Source: Clostridia bacterium (GTDB taxonomy: Bacteria; Bacillota; Clostridia; TANB77; CAG-508). From it: 64,000 nt of DNA. Below the pieces are notes generated by a model. That model was not told the DNA's origin, searched no databases, and saw only the letters and a list, made by a program, of their open reading frames with translations. Positions 51,546 to 57,967 of this stretch are shown in pieces; the stretch's first letter is position 1, and each line of letters begins with the position of its first letter. Made by a program: the position numbers and the translations under genes. Where the stretch lies: the NCBI GenBank assembly GCA_022796855.1, contig JAAWJM010000001.1:114585-178584 (forward strand). Reading direction: 5' to 3'.

Positions 51546-51906
51546 GGCAAGAAATTGTTGGTAAATTTTGATTTTATGTAAAATCTTACATCGCCTATTA
51601 GCGAAGAGAACACAATAATACCCTCAGATTTACTTTTAAAAGAGATTTGTAAATCATTAAATGATTCACGATATAATCTGTGGGAGACTTCTTGTGATGT
51701 GTGTTTCGAAATGCTCGAAGCATATAGCAAAGATATTGACAAGATTTCTTTAGAAGATTTAATTGAGGCAATGCAGTAGGCAGCATTTACAAGGGCGGGT
51801 AGGAATTCTTACCTGCTCCTTATTTATAAGGTTTTGCATGGAAGAAGAAAAGTGTCTTGACTATAATTTATAATTTGCTAAAATAGGTATGAGGAGGAGA
51901 GGGAAA

Positions 51907-52791
51907 ATGAGGTTAAGAACACATAAAAATTTAAAAGAAATTAGGAATGATGATGGGTTTGAGAATAAGAAATTTAAGTATTATAAGGGGTTATGCGAGC
52001 ATATTACTTCGGATAAGAAATTAAATGAACGTTATGAGAGGGAATTGATTGATTATTTAGAAAAAGATAGTGGATTAGAGTTATATGACTTAGTGGAAAG
52101 TATTGAGAGGGACAACCCTTATGAGAATGGTTTTGTGATAAGGGAAGATTTTAGAAAAAAAGATAGAGAAACATTAGAGAAACAGGAATTGGTAAAAAAT
52201 AAGTTTTGTGAGAAGTCTAGTCAAAGTAAAGTGAATGATTTAGAACCGATGATACAAAGAAATATTATTTTATCTGGACAATATAATGATATTTTAGGTA
52301 TGCCAATTTATTATGAGTTTCCTTGTAATAAAGGAGATAAAAGACCAATTGATTTAATTACGTATGATAAAAATAGTAATACGGTATATTTAGTGGAATT
52401 AAAAAAGTGTTCAGCAAGTGAGCGTGAAAAAATAGAAAATAATGATGAAAAAGAAAGTGAAGAGTTGTTTCTAAGAGCAGCTTTTGAAATAAGCACATAT
52501 TATAGCTTTTTTACACATTTAATTCAAAATTCCAAAGAAGATTGTGCAAGAGTAGAAGAAGCTTTTTACTATGTTAGTGGACAAAAAATCGATTTACATT
52601 CTAGTAAAATAAAAATAAAAAAAGCCATATTAGCACCAAAGCGATTATTTGAAGATGTATATACGGATAAATTGAAAAAATTAATGAAGGAGTACGAGTG
52701 TTTTTGGATTGAGAGAAAGAGCAATATTGAAACCTTAAAAGACTATACAATTAATACAAAAGAACAACTTTTTAATATTAAAAGAATATAA
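51907..52791 (+). CDS. hypothetical protein with PD-(D/E)xK-like motif
   Basis: PIDLITYDKNSNTVYLVELKK fits D-x(n)-E-x-K. Start may be 51889. Confidence 0.5.
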   Translation: MRLRTHKNLKEIRNDDGFENKKFKYYKGLCEHITSDKKLNERYERELIDYLEKDSGLELYDLVESIERDNPYENGFVIREDFRKKDRETLEKQELVKNKFCEKSSQSKVNDLEPMIQRNIILSGQYNDILGMPIYYEFPCNKGDKRPIDLITYDKNSNTVYLVELKKCSASEREKIENNDEKESEELFLRAAFEISTYYSFFTHLIQNSKEDCARVEEAFYYVSGQKIDLHSSKIKIKKAILAPKRLFEDVYTDKLKKLMKEYECFWIERKSNIETLKDYTINTKEQLFNIKRI

Positions 52792-52920: not shown

Positions 52921-53129
52921 AATAACGAAAAAATAAGCCTAAGTGTTTCTACATTTAGGATTATTTTTGTGACAAGGAAAAACAGACTATAGAAACTGGA
53001 ATAAAATGTAAAAAATCAAAACTATACTCCTACAGCTACAATGGATTTCTCGGTTTTTGCTTTCTGATAACATTTTCAAAATCAATATGTTATAATAAAT
53101 AAAAAGAAAATTTAAAGGAGGAAAATAAT

Positions 53130-54215
53130 ATGTTTGATGAAGTAAAAAGACAAGCACTAAGTAGAGCACATTTGCTATATGGAGCAAATCCACTACCCAA
53201 GGAAATACAAGAAAGGTTAGACTTAGAATTGGGTTCTATTAAATCCAATGGATGGGATAGCGTTTATGTAATTGCTAGAAAATTAGCAGACAAATCGAGG
53301 AAATATGGCTATATGACAGGATTTAGAGGTTGTATTGGTAGCTCATTGGTTGCCTTTTTGATGGAAATAACGCAGTGTAATCCCTTACCACAAAAGTATT
53401 ATGGTTTTAATATACCATTTGAAACATTTGCAGGTGTGGATTTTAACAAAGAATTAGATATTACTCTCAATGTAGCATACGACATTCATAAGGAGATTTG
53501 TGAATACTTAGATGAATTGTTAAAAGAAGAGGGAATTGATAAAAATGGTGGCGATATAGACCAAAGTAATGGCATTTATAATTTTAAAAGAACCATAGTA
53601 TCAAAAGAAGGAAAGAAGTTAGCCACTATCAATATTGTATCCCATAAGTTGCTTATGCCATTAAAGGAACTATGCCAGTTAACGAAGCATTTTCCACGAT
53701 TGATACGACCAGACGAAGATGTTAGGGAAATAGTCGACTTACTGATAAAAGAAGAATTTTATATTCATATAAATTTAGAAAGAGTATTAGATATTATATC
53801 AAAGATAGAAATAGACACTTTCGAAAAATTGGTTATTTTACAAGGACTGCTATATGCAGCTGTCACGGATAATTGCATAGGAGATATACTTCTAGCAAGA
53901 ACATCAGACCTATCACAAATCATTTCTCATAGAGATGATATCATGATATTTTTAATGCAAAAAGGAATTGATAGAGTGACAGCTTATCATATTATGGAAA
54001 GTGTAAGAAAAGGAAAAGGAACTACCGAAGAAATGGATGATATTATGCGAGAGAAGAATGTTCCAGATTGGTATATAAAGATATGTAATCATATAGATTA
54101 TTTATTTCCCAAGGCACACAATGTTGGGTATGCCATATTGGAATATCAGTTAGCATGGTATGGCATTCATTATCCAGAAGAATATGCAAAAGTAATGGAA
54201 AAGTGGCGAGTATGA
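53130..54215 (+). CDS. PolC-derived protein (compacted palm/fingers remnant, catalytic DxD lost)
   Basis: Own AAAGGAGG RBS. GFRGCIGSSLVAFLMEITQCNPLP, NIPFETFAG, LDITLNV (PolC has DIDLNF), HRDDIMIFL, IMESVRKGKG, VPDWYI, YLFPKAH. Confidence 0.7.
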   Translation: MFDEVKRQALSRAHLLYGANPLPKEIQERLDLELGSIKSNGWDSVYVIARKLADKSRKYGYMTGFRGCIGSSLVAFLMEITQCNPLPQKYYGFNIPFETFAGVDFNKELDITLNVAYDIHKEICEYLDELLKEEGIDKNGGDIDQSNGIYNFKRTIVSKEGKKLATINIVSHKLLMPLKELCQLTKHFPRLIRPDEDVREIVDLLIKEEFYIHINLERVLDIISKIEIDTFEKLVILQGLLYAAVTDNCIGDILLARTSDLSQIISHRDDIMIFLMQKGIDRVTAYHIMESVRKGKGTTEEMDDIMREKNVPDWYIKICNHIDYLFPKAHNVGYAILEYQLAWYGIHYPEEYAKVMEKWRV

Positions 54216-54230
54216 TAGAGGAGGTATTAG

Positions 54231-54563
54231 ATGAGCGATTTTGAAAAAGAAGTAGAATATCTTCTTCATTTGATAAAAAATAATATAAACATAGTAACCA
54301 CGAATAAACCAGAGGGAATATCAACCGAGGAATTAGTATTTTTTAATTGGAATATGAGCAAAAATGGACAAGAAATAGTAGTATACAATCAAGAAAAGGA
54401 TGTAGTCTATGATATAGTAACAAAGAAAATAGAAACATCCGAATTTCAAAAGATAAATAAAGAGGAGATATTAAACATAATTAAGTTAATGAGTTTATAT
54501 GGGAATAAAGAAATAAGTTTTAACAACATGATAAAACGATACAAGGAGGAAATGGGGATATGA
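54231..54563 (+). CDS. hypothetical protein
   Basis: GGAGG RBS. ATGA overlap with the next gene. Confidence 0.55.
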   Translation: MSDFEKEVEYLLHLIKNNINIVTTNKPEGISTEELVFFNWNMSKNGQEIVVYNQEKDVVYDIVTKKIETSEFQKINKEEILNIIKLMSLYGNKEISFNNMIKRYKEEMGI

Positions 54564-55010
54564 ATATTACCGATTATGACAAAATCCAATTAGAATTTGA
54601 AGAATTTGGTATTATGCTTCCGAAGAGTATTATTGAAAAATTTGAAGTAAATAAGGTAGAGCAATTGATAGAAGCAAAATATAACCCAGAAGATGAATAT
54701 GAAGAATATCTTGTAATTAATCGAATATTAGCAGAAAAATTTTGGGAAAAAGAAAGTTTGAACAAATTCAAACGGAATATTAAGGGAAGGTTCATGGGGA
54801 CATCTATTTTTACTAGATGAAAATGAAAATCCATGTTGTAGTTTTACAGAATGCATTAGTCAAAATAACATATACAGTATTAATATTTATAAGGAAGATA
54901 AGCTAATAGAGAAATATTCTACCGTATGGAGTAATACTCAATTTGAAAATGAATACCAAAAAATTGGAATCACAAAGGAGAAAATTATCATTCGTATAAA
55001 GGAATTATAG
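54560..55010 (+). CDS. hypothetical (possibly SUKH/SMI1-like) protein, +1 change at in-frame CGG 54773
   Basis: ...ESLNKFK-G-ILREGSWGHLFLLDENENPCCSFTEC...IIIRIKEL. The zero frame stops 15 codons after the CGG; the +1 frame runs 78 codons to 55010. Confidence 0.6.
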
Positions 55011-55108: not shown

Positions 55109-56293
55109 ATGCTAGAAATTAAAACCTATGGTGGAGATAAAATTGGTGGATGTGTAACGGAAATTAGCAGTAAAACAGCTAAGATTATATTCGATTATGG
55201 AACCAATTTAGATGGAACAAAACAAATAGAAATAGAAGGATTAACCAAAGGAGATTCCAAAGTGAATGCAGTATTTATATCACATTATCATTTAGACCAT
55301 ATTGGAGAGGTAAGCAATATATTAGAAGAAATACCAATTTATATTGAAGAAACCACCAAAAAACTATATGATATTATTTGTGATTTTAGCGGTAAGCCAA
55401 GAATAGAAGCAAAAACATTTCGATTTGGACAAGTGCTAGAAGGAAAAGAATTTGGAGATGTTAAAATAACACCATATCGAGTAGACCACTCTGCTTACAA
55501 TTCTACAATGTTTGTCATAACCGATGAAGAAGAAACTGCACTTTATACCGGTGATTTTAGAGATAATGGGTATACAGGTGGTGCCCTTATTCCAACATTA
55601 AAGAAAATTGGAAAGGTTGATTATTTGATTACCGAAGGAACGAATATTGGTAGTAAATCTCATATTCTTGAAAAAGAGGAAAGTTTAGTAGAAGAATTTG
55701 CTAATATTGCTAGAGAATATAAGCAAGTATTTGTATTAATGTCCTCTTCTAATATTGATAGAATTACTACAATGTTAAAAGCCTGCAATCAAACAAAACA
55801 TATCCTAATACAAGACATTTACATGGCACATTTAACAAGTTTCATACAAAAAGAAGATAAGAAAAATATACCAAATCCAGTTACCTTCGATAATGTGATG
55901 GTATATAAGCCACGATATATGAAAAGGAAAAAGGACGAATTTCGAAAGCAATATCTACAAAGTTTTCAAGGCAAAAATAAAAGCTCCATGCTATATAAGC
56001 CATTTATGATGAACATTCGAACCAGTATGTTAGAAGATTTAGAAATGTTTGAATTTAAAGGAGATATTCTTACCAATGCGTGCTTGGTATATTCTATGTG
56101 GGGAGGTTATAAAGAAAAAGAAGAAATACAAAACTTCCTAAAAAGAGTTCAAGAATTAGGAATAACCGTAATCCAGAAAGACATTCACACATCTGGACAT
56201 GCTAGTGAAGAATTAATAGATGAGGTAAAAAAAATAACAAGTCCCAAAAAAGTTTTTACCATACATACGAAAGAAACAGAAGAGAGTGTTTAA
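55109..56293 (+). CDS. MBL-fold beta-CASP-type hydrolase (RNase J-related, short form)
   Basis: SHYHLDHIG motif 2. C-terminal IHTSGHASEEL...VFTIHT, as in beta-CASP motif C. Confidence 0.75.
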   Translation: MLEIKTYGGDKIGGCVTEISSKTAKIIFDYGTNLDGTKQIEIEGLTKGDSKVNAVFISHYHLDHIGEVSNILEEIPIYIEETTKKLYDIICDFSGKPRIEAKTFRFGQVLEGKEFGDVKITPYRVDHSAYNSTMFVITDEEETALYTGDFRDNGYTGGALIPTLKKIGKVDYLITEGTNIGSKSHILEKEESLVEEFANIAREYKQVFVLMSSSNIDRITTMLKACNQTKHILIQDIYMAHLTSFIQKEDKKNIPNPVTFDNVMVYKPRYMKRKKDEFRKQYLQSFQGKNKSSMLYKPFMMNIRTSMLEDLEMFEFKGDILTNACLVYSMWGGYKEKEEIQNFLKRVQELGITVIQKDIHTSGHASEELIDEVKKITSPKKVFTIHTKETEESV

Positions 56294-56303
56294 AAATTGA
56301 AAA

Positions 56304-57509
56304 ATGATAAAATTTGAGAAGAAGGATAATAAAATGAAATTATATTTGGTAAAGGTTGAAATGTATGACTATACAGAAGAGGGAATTGTATTTTTTGACC
56401 CAGAGTCAAAATGTAATATATATCGTGATTTTGAACAAGCAAGACAAGCAGGAATACAGGACTTATCTACAAGAATAAAAGACATGGAAAAAGGTACTAA
56501 TTGCTCCTTTTTGGAGATGTTAAAAGAAGAGAAAGTAGATTATAGTTTTCATATTATTCAAATTGATGATTTATCGTATGCAGAAGAATTTGATGTGAAG
56601 TATGATGACTTTCATAGTGAAAGGTATCATTATTTAGAGCCTACTCATAAAGTGTACGAGTTAGATGAAACGGGAAAGGTTATTAGAATAAACTATGAAT
56701 ACCGATATAAAAATGCATTTTGGGAAGCCCAAGAGACCATCCAATTATATCCAGAAGATTTGGAAGAGGGGGCAAGTGAAAAATTTAAAATTGGTGATAT
56801 TGTAAAATTAAAACATGAAATAGATTATGGGTATATAGATGATAATGTAGATAGAATTTATGTGGTTAGGTGGTTACCAAGAAAATTTAATGGGGAAAAA
56901 TATTTTGAAAATACGTATGCATTAGTATCTCTTTATGAAATGAAAAATGAATGGGGAAATAAGGAGTTATTTACATATGAATATTTTGGGCATGATATTG
57001 AAAAATACACAGGAGTGATTGAAAAAGACTCCGAATATAACTTACTAAGTAAAATTGTAAAAGGAGATATTTGTGTAAGTTATGAATATTGGACCAAGAT
57101 TAAAATAGGAATGTTACCATTAACAAAAGAAACTCTTCGAAAAGAAAATGGAGAAGAGGGGGATGATTGGGGTTTTTACTCTACCGAAATTGGACCGAAA
57201 CGCACAGGGTTAAACGTAAGTGTATTTCCAAAGAAAAATATATTTGGAGAAAATATAAAAGAATGCTTACCTAAAATCCGTATTCAGAATGAACGAAATA
57301 ATTATGAAGATACATTTAGTATAACATTAGAAGAAGAACCAAAAGTTGTGATTGGGGAAAATAAATTATCCAAAGAAGATTACCAAAAGGTTTGTGAGTT
57401 TGTAAGAAAAAATTTAGAAATCTTAAAAAAACATTTTGACCCCAATAATGAATTTGATGATGATGAATTATGGGAAGCACTGAAAGAAAATGGGTCAATT
57501 CAAATTTAA
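56304..57509 (+). CDS. hypothetical protein
   Basis: 401-codon ORF in the same operon-like array. No family recognised. Confidence 0.55.
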   Translation: MIKFEKKDNKMKLYLVKVEMYDYTEEGIVFFDPESKCNIYRDFEQARQAGIQDLSTRIKDMEKGTNCSFLEMLKEEKVDYSFHIIQIDDLSYAEEFDVKYDDFHSERYHYLEPTHKVYELDETGKVIRINYEYRYKNAFWEAQETIQLYPEDLEEGASEKFKIGDIVKLKHEIDYGYIDDNVDRIYVVRWLPRKFNGEKYFENTYALVSLYEMKNEWGNKELFTYEYFGHDIEKYTGVIEKDSEYNLLSKIVKGDICVSYEYWTKIKIGMLPLTKETLRKENGEEGDDWGFYSTEIGPKRTGLNVSVFPKKNIFGENIKECLPKIRIQNERNNYEDTFSITLEEEPKVVIGENKLSKEDYQKVCEFVRKNLEILKKHFDPNNEFDDDELWEALKENGSIQI

Positions 57510-57521
57510 GGAGGAAATGCA

Positions 57522-57638
57522 ATGGGATATTATGTTATAAAAAAACTAGCACCAAAGATATTCGAAAAAGCAAAGAAAAAAGCAGAAGAAAATGAAATGA
57601 AGAAACAAGAAAAAAAGAAAGAAGATAAAAAGAAATAG
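57522..57638 (+). CDS. 38-aa Lys-rich micro-protein
   Basis: AAGGAGG RBS 7 nt upstream. Tightly packed between neighbouring genes. Confidence 0.4.
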   Translation: MGYYVIKKLAPKIFEKAKKKAEENEMKKQEKKKEDKKK

Positions 57639-57643
57639 GAGGA

Positions 57644-57967
57644 ATGGCGATGGCTACAACGAATGAGTATATTGAATACGTATGTGAACAAATAAAAGGA
57701 ATTGGAGAAATACGTTATAAAAAAATGTTTGGAGAGTTTATGGTATATGTAAATGATAAACCAGTTATCATTGTTTGTGATAATGTACCTTTTGTAAAAA
57801 AGTTAGATTGTATTGAAGAAATGATGAAACAAGCTGAAGTAGGGTGTCCATATAAGGGGGCAAAAGAGCACTATGTATTAGATATTGATAATCCAGAGTT
57901 TTGTAAAATGGTAATATTGGAAGTAGAAAAAGTAACACCAGTACCAAAGCCTAGGAAAAAGAAATAG
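57644..57967 (+). CDS. TfoX N-terminal domain protein
   Basis: YKKMFGEFMVYVNDKPVIIVCDN pattern. Confidence 0.7.
   Translation: MAMATTNEYIEYVCEQIKGIGEIRYKKMFGEFMVYVNDKPVIIVCDNVPFVKKLDCIEEMMKQAEVGCPYKGAKEHYVLDIDNPEFCKMVILEVEKVTPVPKPRKKK

Follow-up and report, generated by a model that had tools for sequence, protein, structure and literature searches.

Can the palm and fingers of a replicative DNA polymerase live on as a protein of their own, and if so, in what capacity? The question is posed by a 64,000-nucleotide stretch of a Clostridia bacterium genome (assembly GCA_022796855.1, contig JAAWJM010000001.1, positions 114,585 to 178,584 of the forward strand), hereafter the window. At 53130..54215 on the + strand, it carries an open reading frame (ORF) that starts with ATG and encodes a PolC-derived palm and fingers protein of 361 amino acids (aa), designated here as mini-PolC. 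An initial annotation, made from the letters of the DNA alone, had delimited exactly this ORF and proposed that it is an exapted, stand-alone protein derived from PolC. That proposal is upheld by the relationship of mini-PolC to PolC, by purifying selection on its gene, and by the existence of a compact protein family. Related proteins and the loci that carry them are referred to below by P and L numbers, respectively.

PolC homology and domain architecture

Profile and structure comparisons with Pfam, NCBIfam, PDB, and Foldseek all reveal a clear relationship of mini-PolC to PolC. The Pfam model PF07733 covers residues 8-204 with an E-value of 4e-21 (76 bits against a cutoff of 23.9 bits), and the fingers model PF17657 matches weakly (15.6 bits against a 22-bit cutoff). 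The NCBIfam PolC model PRK00448 aligns in three stretches (E 2.8e-71), and the scores against the PolC equivalog models fall below their cutoffs (240.6 vs 873 bits for NF001688 and 219 vs 1043 bits for TIGR01405). The best PDB matches are the PolC structures of G. kaustophilus (3F2B, E 9e-50) and E. faecium (9QPC). In the 3F2B alignment, residues 3-96 correspond to the N-terminal part of the palm, residues 88-140 to the catalytic strand, and residues 223-352 (53796..54185, + strand) to the PolC fingers (chain residues 753-883, E 6e-26). This fingers remnant comprises the RDD motif (268-270), ESVRKGKG (290-297), WYI (314-316), and the O-helix Y324-L-F-P-K-A-H330. An AlphaFold2 (AF2) model built with 16 family sequences attains a predicted local distance difference test (pLDDT) score of 81 and a predicted template modeling (pTM) score of 0.81. 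In Foldseek, it matches PolC with template modeling (TM) scores of 0.75-0.77 normalized to the query (0.77 for 3F2B), followed by DnaE structures in second place and by only marginal matches to other Pol-beta-like nucleotidyltransferases. The derivation of mini-PolC from PolC is thus far beyond chance.

The extent of the reduction is delineated by a PolC hidden Markov model (HMM) of 1420 positions built from 44 full-length PolCs. Mini-PolC covers two palm segments, the third palm strand, and the fingers, and leaves uncovered the N-terminal/OB region, the PHP and exonuclease (Exo) domains, the Zn finger (positions 890-927), the thumb (978-1062), and the C-terminal 145 positions. Its N-terminus coincides with the start of the palm and its C-terminus falls at HMM position about 1275 of 1420; the PolC consensus C-terminal end QLSLF is absent. 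The alignment to 3F2B likewise skips the Zn-finger insert (chain residues about 510-536). Both the deletion of this insert and the lack of a PHP, exonuclease, OB, or thumb module, as described in the initial annotation, are therefore borne out. Pfam detects no PHP or RNase_T domain in mini-PolC, and tblastn across the 64-kb window finds none in its flanks. Among the PolC landmarks quoted earlier, the first had been misread (RLDLELGSI, not RLELELGSI), and all others are present: GFRGCIGSSLVAFLMEITQCNPLP, NIPFETFAG, LDITLNV, HRDDIMIFL, IMESVRKGKG, VPDWYI, and YLFPKAH. With an isoelectric point (pI) of 5.7, mini-PolC is acidic, and so is the corresponding region of real PolC; charge and pI were considered as a discriminator between functional hypotheses and did not separate them.

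Degeneration of the catalytic triad and retention of the nucleotide pocket

PolC enzymes and their DnaE relatives carry out catalysis with conserved aspartates, which are D972/D974 in E. faecium PolC (PMC12592400) and the triad D401/D403/D555 in E. coli DnaE (PMC8485763). In mini-PolC, the corresponding strand L109-D-I-T-L-N-V115 (53454..53474, + strand) aligns with P-D-I-D-L-N-F of PolC, such that D110 is kept and the second Asp is replaced by T112. The strand I167-N-I-V-S171 (53628..53642, + strand) aligns with L-D-I-L-G, or I167-N-I-V-S-H with L-D-I-L-G-H, and places N168 at the position of the third Asp. The earlier claim that the catalytic aspartates are missing is hence correct for the second and third and incorrect for the first, while the predicted exchange of DIDLNF for LDITLNV is seen in the alignments. 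Judged from its residues, canonical three-Asp chemistry is not possible for mini-PolC. The loss extends to its compact relatives: in a set of 21 members made non-redundant at 70% identity, Asp occupies the three triad positions in 12/21, 1/21, and 6/21 sequences, respectively. The second Asp is substituted in 20/21 members by T, A, N, V, G, K, or I, the first position is Y, V, or N in 8 members, and a single protein, P0150, keeps D-D-D.

The residues around the former substrate site show a different pattern. G67, S72, E98, W314, P327, and A329 are invariant in the 21 members, R268, D269, K328, and Y324 occur in 20/21, H330 and G70 in 19/21, and F326 in 18/21. The mean fraction of the most frequent residue over all positions is 0.51, and at about 40 positions one residue is found in 90% or more of the members. 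G67, G70, and S72 belong to the GS loop R66-G-C-I-G-S-S72 (53325..53345, + strand), which is taken here for the loop by which the C-family palm binds the triphosphate and aligns with GSRGSVGSS of PolC. On the fingers side, H330 aligns with H760 of E. coli, the steric gate on the O-helix that contacts the sugar of the incoming dNTP (PMC8485763). Furthermore, Y324, F326, and H330 match three residues that E. faecium PolC uses in its nucleobase/inhibitor pocket, Y1274, F1276, and H1280 (PMC12592400), and Y242 replaces H1185. In short, chemistry appears to have been given up and the substrate pocket preserved.

Could other acidic residues have taken over? A thumbless nucleotidyltransferase or nucleotide-modifying enzyme that employs D110 with E98 or D269/D270 would fit the partial retention of D110, the near invariance of E98 and D269, and the Pol-beta-like nucleotidyltransferase fold of the palm, for which Foldseek returns weak matches to Cid1 and Pol lambda; P0150, moreover, keeps all three Asp although it lacks a thumb. 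The chemically unrelated substitutes at the second position and the Y, V, or N at the first speak against such an enzyme, and active PolC shows the same conservation of E98 and RDD, residues that to our knowledge are not metal ligands there. A residual activity of this kind is regarded as improbable. P0150 itself (355 aa; PDFDFNL, KIDILGH) might represent a minimal C-family core, possibly with its chemistry retained.

The retained aromatics would also suit a decoy, or dominant-negative mimic of PolC. It could imitate the active-site cleft and soak up whatever targets PolC, for instance a phage-encoded inhibitor, a toxin, or an analogue of a nucleobase or nucleotide, or it could slow the replication of the host or of a rival by vying with PolC for a partner. 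The aromatic residues of the inhibitor/base pocket are kept (Y324, F326, H330, and Y242 for H1185). Most active-site variants of dnaE could not be cloned, for which the authors blame dominant-negative toxicity (PMC8485763), an observation in favor of a dominant-negative role. The small and tightly coupled ORF downstream of mini-PolC could be a regulator or antidote, and toxin-antitoxin pairs lie nearby. However, known PolC inhibitors of the base-pocket class pair with template DNA held in the polymerase (PMC12592400), and mini-PolC has no DNA-holding domains. The clamp-binding tail at the C-terminus is absent, as is every other plausible partner-binding module, and it is implausible that abundant nucleotides would be sequestered stoichiometrically. 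A decoy is accordingly deemed unlikely, and the replisome-binding variant suggested in the initial annotation is disfavored by the loss of every known PolC partner-binding module, including the C-terminal clamp-binding tail.

Gene integrity, selection, and mosaicism

A disrupted polC gene would leave its other parts close by. Using five complete or near-complete PolCs and one shorter PolC-type ORF from the fetched loci as queries, tblastn detects polC-like sequence in the 64-kb window only at 53136-54212, with all remaining matches at E >0.02. Two such weak matches, at 3236-3406 and 24-185, are attributed to chance, as one lies in an ORF without a family match and the other in a flavodiiron-like ORF. 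Seven mini-PolC orthologues from near-identical and more distant genomes retain an unbroken reading frame, and pairwise ratios of nonsynonymous to synonymous substitutions (dN/dS) amount to 0.13-0.36 in six comparisons, with dS reaching 0.83. Mini-PolC is under purifying selection. A split or disrupted polC is ruled out by the tblastn and dN/dS results, in agreement with the earlier view that this is no simple truncated replicative gene; a true split polC, found at locus L027, looks quite different.

These data also bear on whether the gene is the decaying, functionless remnant of a polC duplicate or of a mobile-element polymerase. Massive domain loss combined with loss of catalytic residues is what decay would produce, and other genes look split as well (asnB in the window and a HEPN gene in L001). 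Yet all orthologue frames are intact, dN/dS stays within the same low range even at dS 0.4-0.8, and the roughly 40 strongly conserved positions persist in members down to 35% identity. In addition, the operon partners are conserved and the domain deletions are clean and in frame, which leaves a remnant very improbable.

Selection acts on a gene with a mosaic history. In a sliding comparison with L012, the fingers half of the gene (53649..54248, + strand) is 65-87% identical and its flanks are 98-100% identical. In the same pair, codons 171-361 have a dS of 0.82 and codons 1-170 one of 0.15, with omega values of about 0.27 and 0.18, respectively. Because dS is elevated in the patch as well and omega is only about 0.27, positive selection is rejected as the source of the divergence; the pattern indicates that a divergent fingers-half allele was imported by recombination and is still under purifying selection. 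A second mosaic patch, at 56354-56803, affects the N-terminal third of a downstream gene for a 401-aa protein and is 76-88% identical to L001 (dS 0.48, omega 0.37) in a background of 98-100% identity.

The compact family and its longer relatives

Mini-PolC belongs to a family of compact relatives of 330-412 aa. A word-indexed search recovered proteins of 334-374 aa with identities down to 34-36%, and an exhaustive profile search of 1.8 billion representatives added further members of 331-412 aa. The best non-compact matches of the mini-family profile are PolC-like proteins of 600-950 aa, which score above canonical PolC. These long forms share the end point of mini-PolC, just past the FPKAH...YP.EF helix, and differ widely in what they retain. 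P0121 (733 aa) has the PHP, palm, thumb, and fingers and an intact D-D-D, and it too lacks the Zn finger, with a junction 'NPLPKKYKGFDIPFETLAG' that is nearly the one in the window protein. P0132 (707 aa) keeps the PHP and thumb and has lost both strand Asp residues. As read from their sequences, P0169 (920 aa) bears an extra DnaQ exonuclease at its N-terminus, and P0220 (502 aa) is a partial DnaQ-like domain fused to a thumbless core.

In a neighbor-joining tree of 335 shared columns, which joins divergent sequences and may include incomplete gene calls among the long forms, the 22 canonical PolCs group together as a single clade. Outside it, compact proteins pair with long ones: P0237 with P0160 (99% bootstrap), the P0022 group with P0123 (84%), and P0198 with P0169 (76%). 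The subfamily of the window protein is itself well defined (99%), and its link to P0121 has a bootstrap value of only 16%. Since compact forms are nested among long, C-terminally truncated forms, repeated compaction is probable, and the tree suggests that it happened independently within a clade of PolC-like accessory proteins.

Matches of about 600 aa with an intact D-D-D and Zn finger were considered as a core-only polymerase family and are likely artefacts, judged from P0066. This protein is one fragment of a host polC (L027 5315-10003) that frameshifts in a poor assembly have broken into an N-terminal part of 818 aa, a core of 606 aa, and an HHH_6 piece of 59 aa, side by side. Two other PolC-like proteins of 610-612 aa, P0024 and P0025, have in common a convergent gene of 202-203 aa directly downstream (L028 9812-10423 and L031 4836-5444, - strand; phmmer 1.7e-83).

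Operon partners in the window subfamily

Members with at least 47% identity are grouped as the window subfamily, in which mini-PolC heads a conserved operon with the order mini-PolC, d110, (d86), MBL, (401-aa protein). The gene d110 (54231..54563, + strand) encodes 110 aa and starts 16 nt past the mini-PolC stop. Its homologues directly follow mini-PolC in L002, L021, L023, and L030 (phmmer 6e-14 to 4e-34), so the pair recurs in five independent contexts (window/L001/L012, L002, L021, L023, and L030). The d110 protein matches no Pfam, NCBIfam, or PHROG family. The homologue search yielded only four relatives, and the AF2 model built from four sequences has a pLDDT of 57 and is unusable for a fold search. 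The 86-aa ORF d86 (54560..54820, + strand) overlaps the d110 stop and has a homologue in the same place in L030 (4e-30).

The next gene, at 55109..56293 on the + strand, encodes an RNase J-like beta-CASP protein of the metallo-beta-lactamase fold (MBL; 394 aa, Pfam Lactamase_B). It continues the block in 4/5 contexts; in the fifth, L021, the contig ends inside the d110 gene. MBL homologues are co-located with mini-PolC relatives in L002, L023, L028, and L030, and in L028 the homologue adjoins the 612-aa relative P0024. The best PDB matches of MBL are EF2904, RNase J, CPSF73, and Apollo, and its match to the NCBIfam RNase J family TIGR00649 (4.6e-17) stays under the family cutoff. Given its HxHxDH motif (HYHLDH) and its RNase J/CPSF73/Apollo and beta-CASP family matches, MBL is most likely a nuclease and not a cyclic-nucleotide phosphodiesterase. 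An ancestral linkage of polC and a beta-CASP gene, raised by L027, was rejected: the L027 MBL is unrelated to that of the module and other polC loci have none.

The last gene of the likely operon (56304..57509, + strand) encodes the 401-aa protein, which is strongly acidic (net charge -26) and without a Pfam, NCBIfam, or PDB match; fragments homologous to it come after the MBL gene in L030. Genes for DnaQ-type RNase_T proteins also occur in the block, one in L001 and two in L002, with none in the window.

Mini-PolC has its own ribosome-binding site (RBS), as stated in the initial annotation: AAAGGAGG is read at 53114-53121, 8 nt upstream of the ATG. A promoter-like ATAACA-18-TATAAT site with a TG-extended -10 element lies at 53067-53096 and forms with the RBS the expression signals of 53067..53121 (+ strand), and a terminator-like hairpin (52938..52959, + strand) separates mini-PolC from the upstream gene; both features are matches to a consensus and no more, and in a region this rich in AT, promoter-like sites do not outnumber those in shuffled sequence. 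The upstream neighbor (51889..52791, + strand) is a variable gene for a 300-aa protein and probably a separate transcription unit. Its product has no Pfam, NCBIfam, or PDB match and is homologous only to the product of the L021 upstream gene (3e-9). The two share the pattern IDL...13 residues...L[VI]E[LM]K, and this PD-(D/E)xK-like signature (PIDLI...VYLVELKK) suggests that they are nucleases.

Genomic setting and other subfamilies

The window block is syntenic with L001, L011, and L012, which come from the same or sister species (L011 and L012 are labelled as uncultured Clostridium sp.). L001 is 97-99% identical to the window and has an insertion (14393-15081; window 57509-57644) between the 401-aa gene and a TfoX_N-like gene that contributes an extra 38-aa ORF and the 186-aa DnaQ-type RNase_T gene. 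L012, in turn, is without window segment 58000-59400. Insertions and deletions are frequent past the end of the operon. In the more distant carriers L002 and L023, the block lies in a small island together with a divergent helix-turn-helix (HTH) repressor-like gene, DUF3560, a DUF5906 primase-type gene, and an integrase. Across the family, the genes occupy variable, horizontally exchanged surroundings, often with an integrase.

In subfamily B (36-40% identity), mini-PolC is always the last gene of an operon that encodes two DnaB_C proteins (170 aa and 231-249 aa) and a DnaG-Toprim protein (245-248 aa), in that order. This arrangement occurs at L005 6012-9053, L032 453-2228, and L033 2954-5995 and also in L006 and L007. 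The encoded proteins are domain-reduced replisome proteins, and different recombinases follow downstream. Other compact members adjoin a resolvase with ADP-ribosylglycohydrolase, Macro, and SIR2 genes, or DUF932, and toxin-antitoxin pairs occur near several mini-PolC loci.

The operons of subfamily B are an argument that mini-PolC is a replication accessory, that is, a non-catalytic adaptor of a mobile element's helicase-primase. It could, for instance, hold the primer 3′ end made by the DnaG-like primase and pass it on to the host polymerase, or it could help replisome assembly at the element's origin. The conserved gene order in front of different recombinases, the DUF5906 primase-type gene in the L023 island, and pocket residues suited to recognition of a primer terminus are all consistent with this role. 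On the other hand, the window subfamily has nucleases nearby and no helicase or primase, all known or likely DNA- or replisome-binding modules of PolC are missing, and no origin or initiator is identified near the window gene. The adaptor role is a real possibility, although a fairly small one.

The carriers look like integrative islands rather than recognised viruses or plasmids. No compact member is found in curated phages (INPHARED), plasmids (PLSDB), BFVD, or IMG/VR; the INPHARED and PLSDB matches all span about 1,400 nt and represent full-length polC, and BFVD holds only polymerases of at least 800 aa. The phage-derived origin entertained in the initial annotation finds no support in INPHARED, PLSDB, or IMG/VR.

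A candidate role for mini-PolC

The explanation preferred here, held tentatively and at somewhat less than even confidence, is that mini-PolC is a pseudo-polymerase kept by selection, serving as a non-catalytic subunit that binds a nucleotide or a 3′ end and gates its partners. A dNTP, an NTP, or the 3′ end of a primer would sit in the old active-site pocket and undergo no chemistry there, a reading that draws on the conservation of the GS loop, RDD, and the P-K-A-H motif of the O-helix. Ligand-bound mini-PolC would then target or gate one or more partner nucleases on replication-type nucleic-acid substrates. Most plausibly, this would serve the establishment of the carrier element or its conflict with other elements, in defence or counter-defence. 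The "sensor" named among the options of the initial annotation comes close to this proposal.

Several observations weigh against a ligand-binding, partner-gating subunit. Conservation of the pocket could in part be a folding constraint inherited from PolC, and P0150 with its three Asp residues may mean that part of the compact family is catalytic. Stable binding of duplex DNA by mini-PolC alone is unlikely because the protein is acidic and has no thumb, HhH, or OB elements. The putative nuclease partner is not universal, for there is no MBL in subfamily B, where mini-PolC comes after DnaB/DnaG, nor at the P0047 and P0070 loci, and the fold of d110 is not predictable at its low pLDDT. As for the mobile context, the window locus has no integrase and its GC profile reveals no distinct island, and mini-PolC and its partners obtain only marginal matches in PADLOC-DB 2.0 (E 0.001-0.01) and no assignment in PHROGs.

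A bolder and rather doubtful version casts the dead PolC module as the sensor in a mobile-element conflict system of a class not recognised before, where it would license the RNase J-like nuclease and sometimes DnaQ exonucleases. Its fossil active site would read the dNTP pool, an unusual nucleotide, or the 3′ end at a replication fork, upon which the licensed nucleases would destroy nucleic acid that invades or competes, or process it. Such a module would have arisen several times through independent miniaturisation of element-borne PolC-like polymerases.

Relation to known systems

The closest structural reference for mini-PolC is PolC itself (G. kaustophilus 3F2B/3F2C and E. faecium 9QPC), on which the N-terminal helices of the palm, the GS loop, NIPFETF, two palm strands, and the O-helix region superpose. 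Canonical PolC is nonetheless about 1,430 aa long vs 361 aa, and of the traits of a functional PolC, mini-PolC has only the Pfam core; the triad, thumb, Zn finger, PHP/Exo, C-terminal modules, and an equivalog-level score are all wanting. The long forms of 600-950 aa resemble it in their C-terminal end, in many cases in the Zn-finger deletion, and in being interleaved with compact forms in the tree, and P0024 has the same MBL neighbor. They differ in having the PHP and thumb and, mostly, D-D-D, and some may still be polymerases.

Polymerase derivatives outside this group offer partial parallels. ImuB is an inactive Y-family polymerase maintained as a non-catalytic subunit (PMC12926913). Mini-PolC shares with it the loss of catalytic residues and purifying selection, but it comes from an unrelated polymerase family and has no ImuA or DnaE2-type neighbor; flanking it are genes for nucleases or for DnaB/DnaG and none for a polymerase. 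In ImuB, a motif for clamp binding and a C-terminal region that binds partners persist, and inspection by eye finds no QLxLF-type motif in mini-PolC, d110, or d86. The PolX-like proteins of Actinobacteria are PolX1 homologues without the polymerase domain (PMC12926913). They too are part of a multidomain polymerase that persists on its own, except that PHP is kept and the polymerase lost, the reverse of mini-PolC.

A literature search found no published description of stand-alone palm and fingers remnants of PolC. Mini-PolC thus appears to be an undescribed, reduced, and non-catalytic form of a C-family polymerase homologue, and the long forms appear likewise undescribed. A 2026 survey dropped strongly diverged or truncated sequences before phylogenetics (PMC12926913), and because fragments and truncated sequences are set aside, a family such as this one would be filtered from at least parts of two systematic surveys.

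C-family polymerases are usually viewed as large essential replicases, and the mini-PolC family shows that the palm and fingers core of PolC can persist alone without catalysis. The conservation pattern of the family separates the nucleotide pocket from all other polymerase functions and makes the family a natural minimal system for C-family nucleotide recognition, also with regard to the pocket at which PolC antibiotics act. The ties of the operons to an RNase J-like nuclease and to DnaB/DnaG lead to testable ideas on how elements of gut Clostridia may manipulate replication or nucleic-acid turnover.

Other genes in the window

Upstream of the mini-PolC operon, a nucleotidyltransferase/HEPN toxin-antitoxin-like pair is located at about 43596-44400 of the window (L001 335-1074). 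Gene calling in L001 divides the HEPN part into two short ORFs of 52 and 91 aa, and it may be disrupted there. The asparagine synthase gene (asnB) is split into overlapping ORFs at 3606-4334 and 4318-5040 on the - strand, which likely reflects a frameshift, a pseudogene, or a sequencing error. An ORF6N-domain protein, of a type common among phage antirepressor-like proteins, is encoded at 2170-2802. Finally, 7250-9868 encodes a UvrA-like ABC protein of 872 aa, shorter than canonical UvrA.

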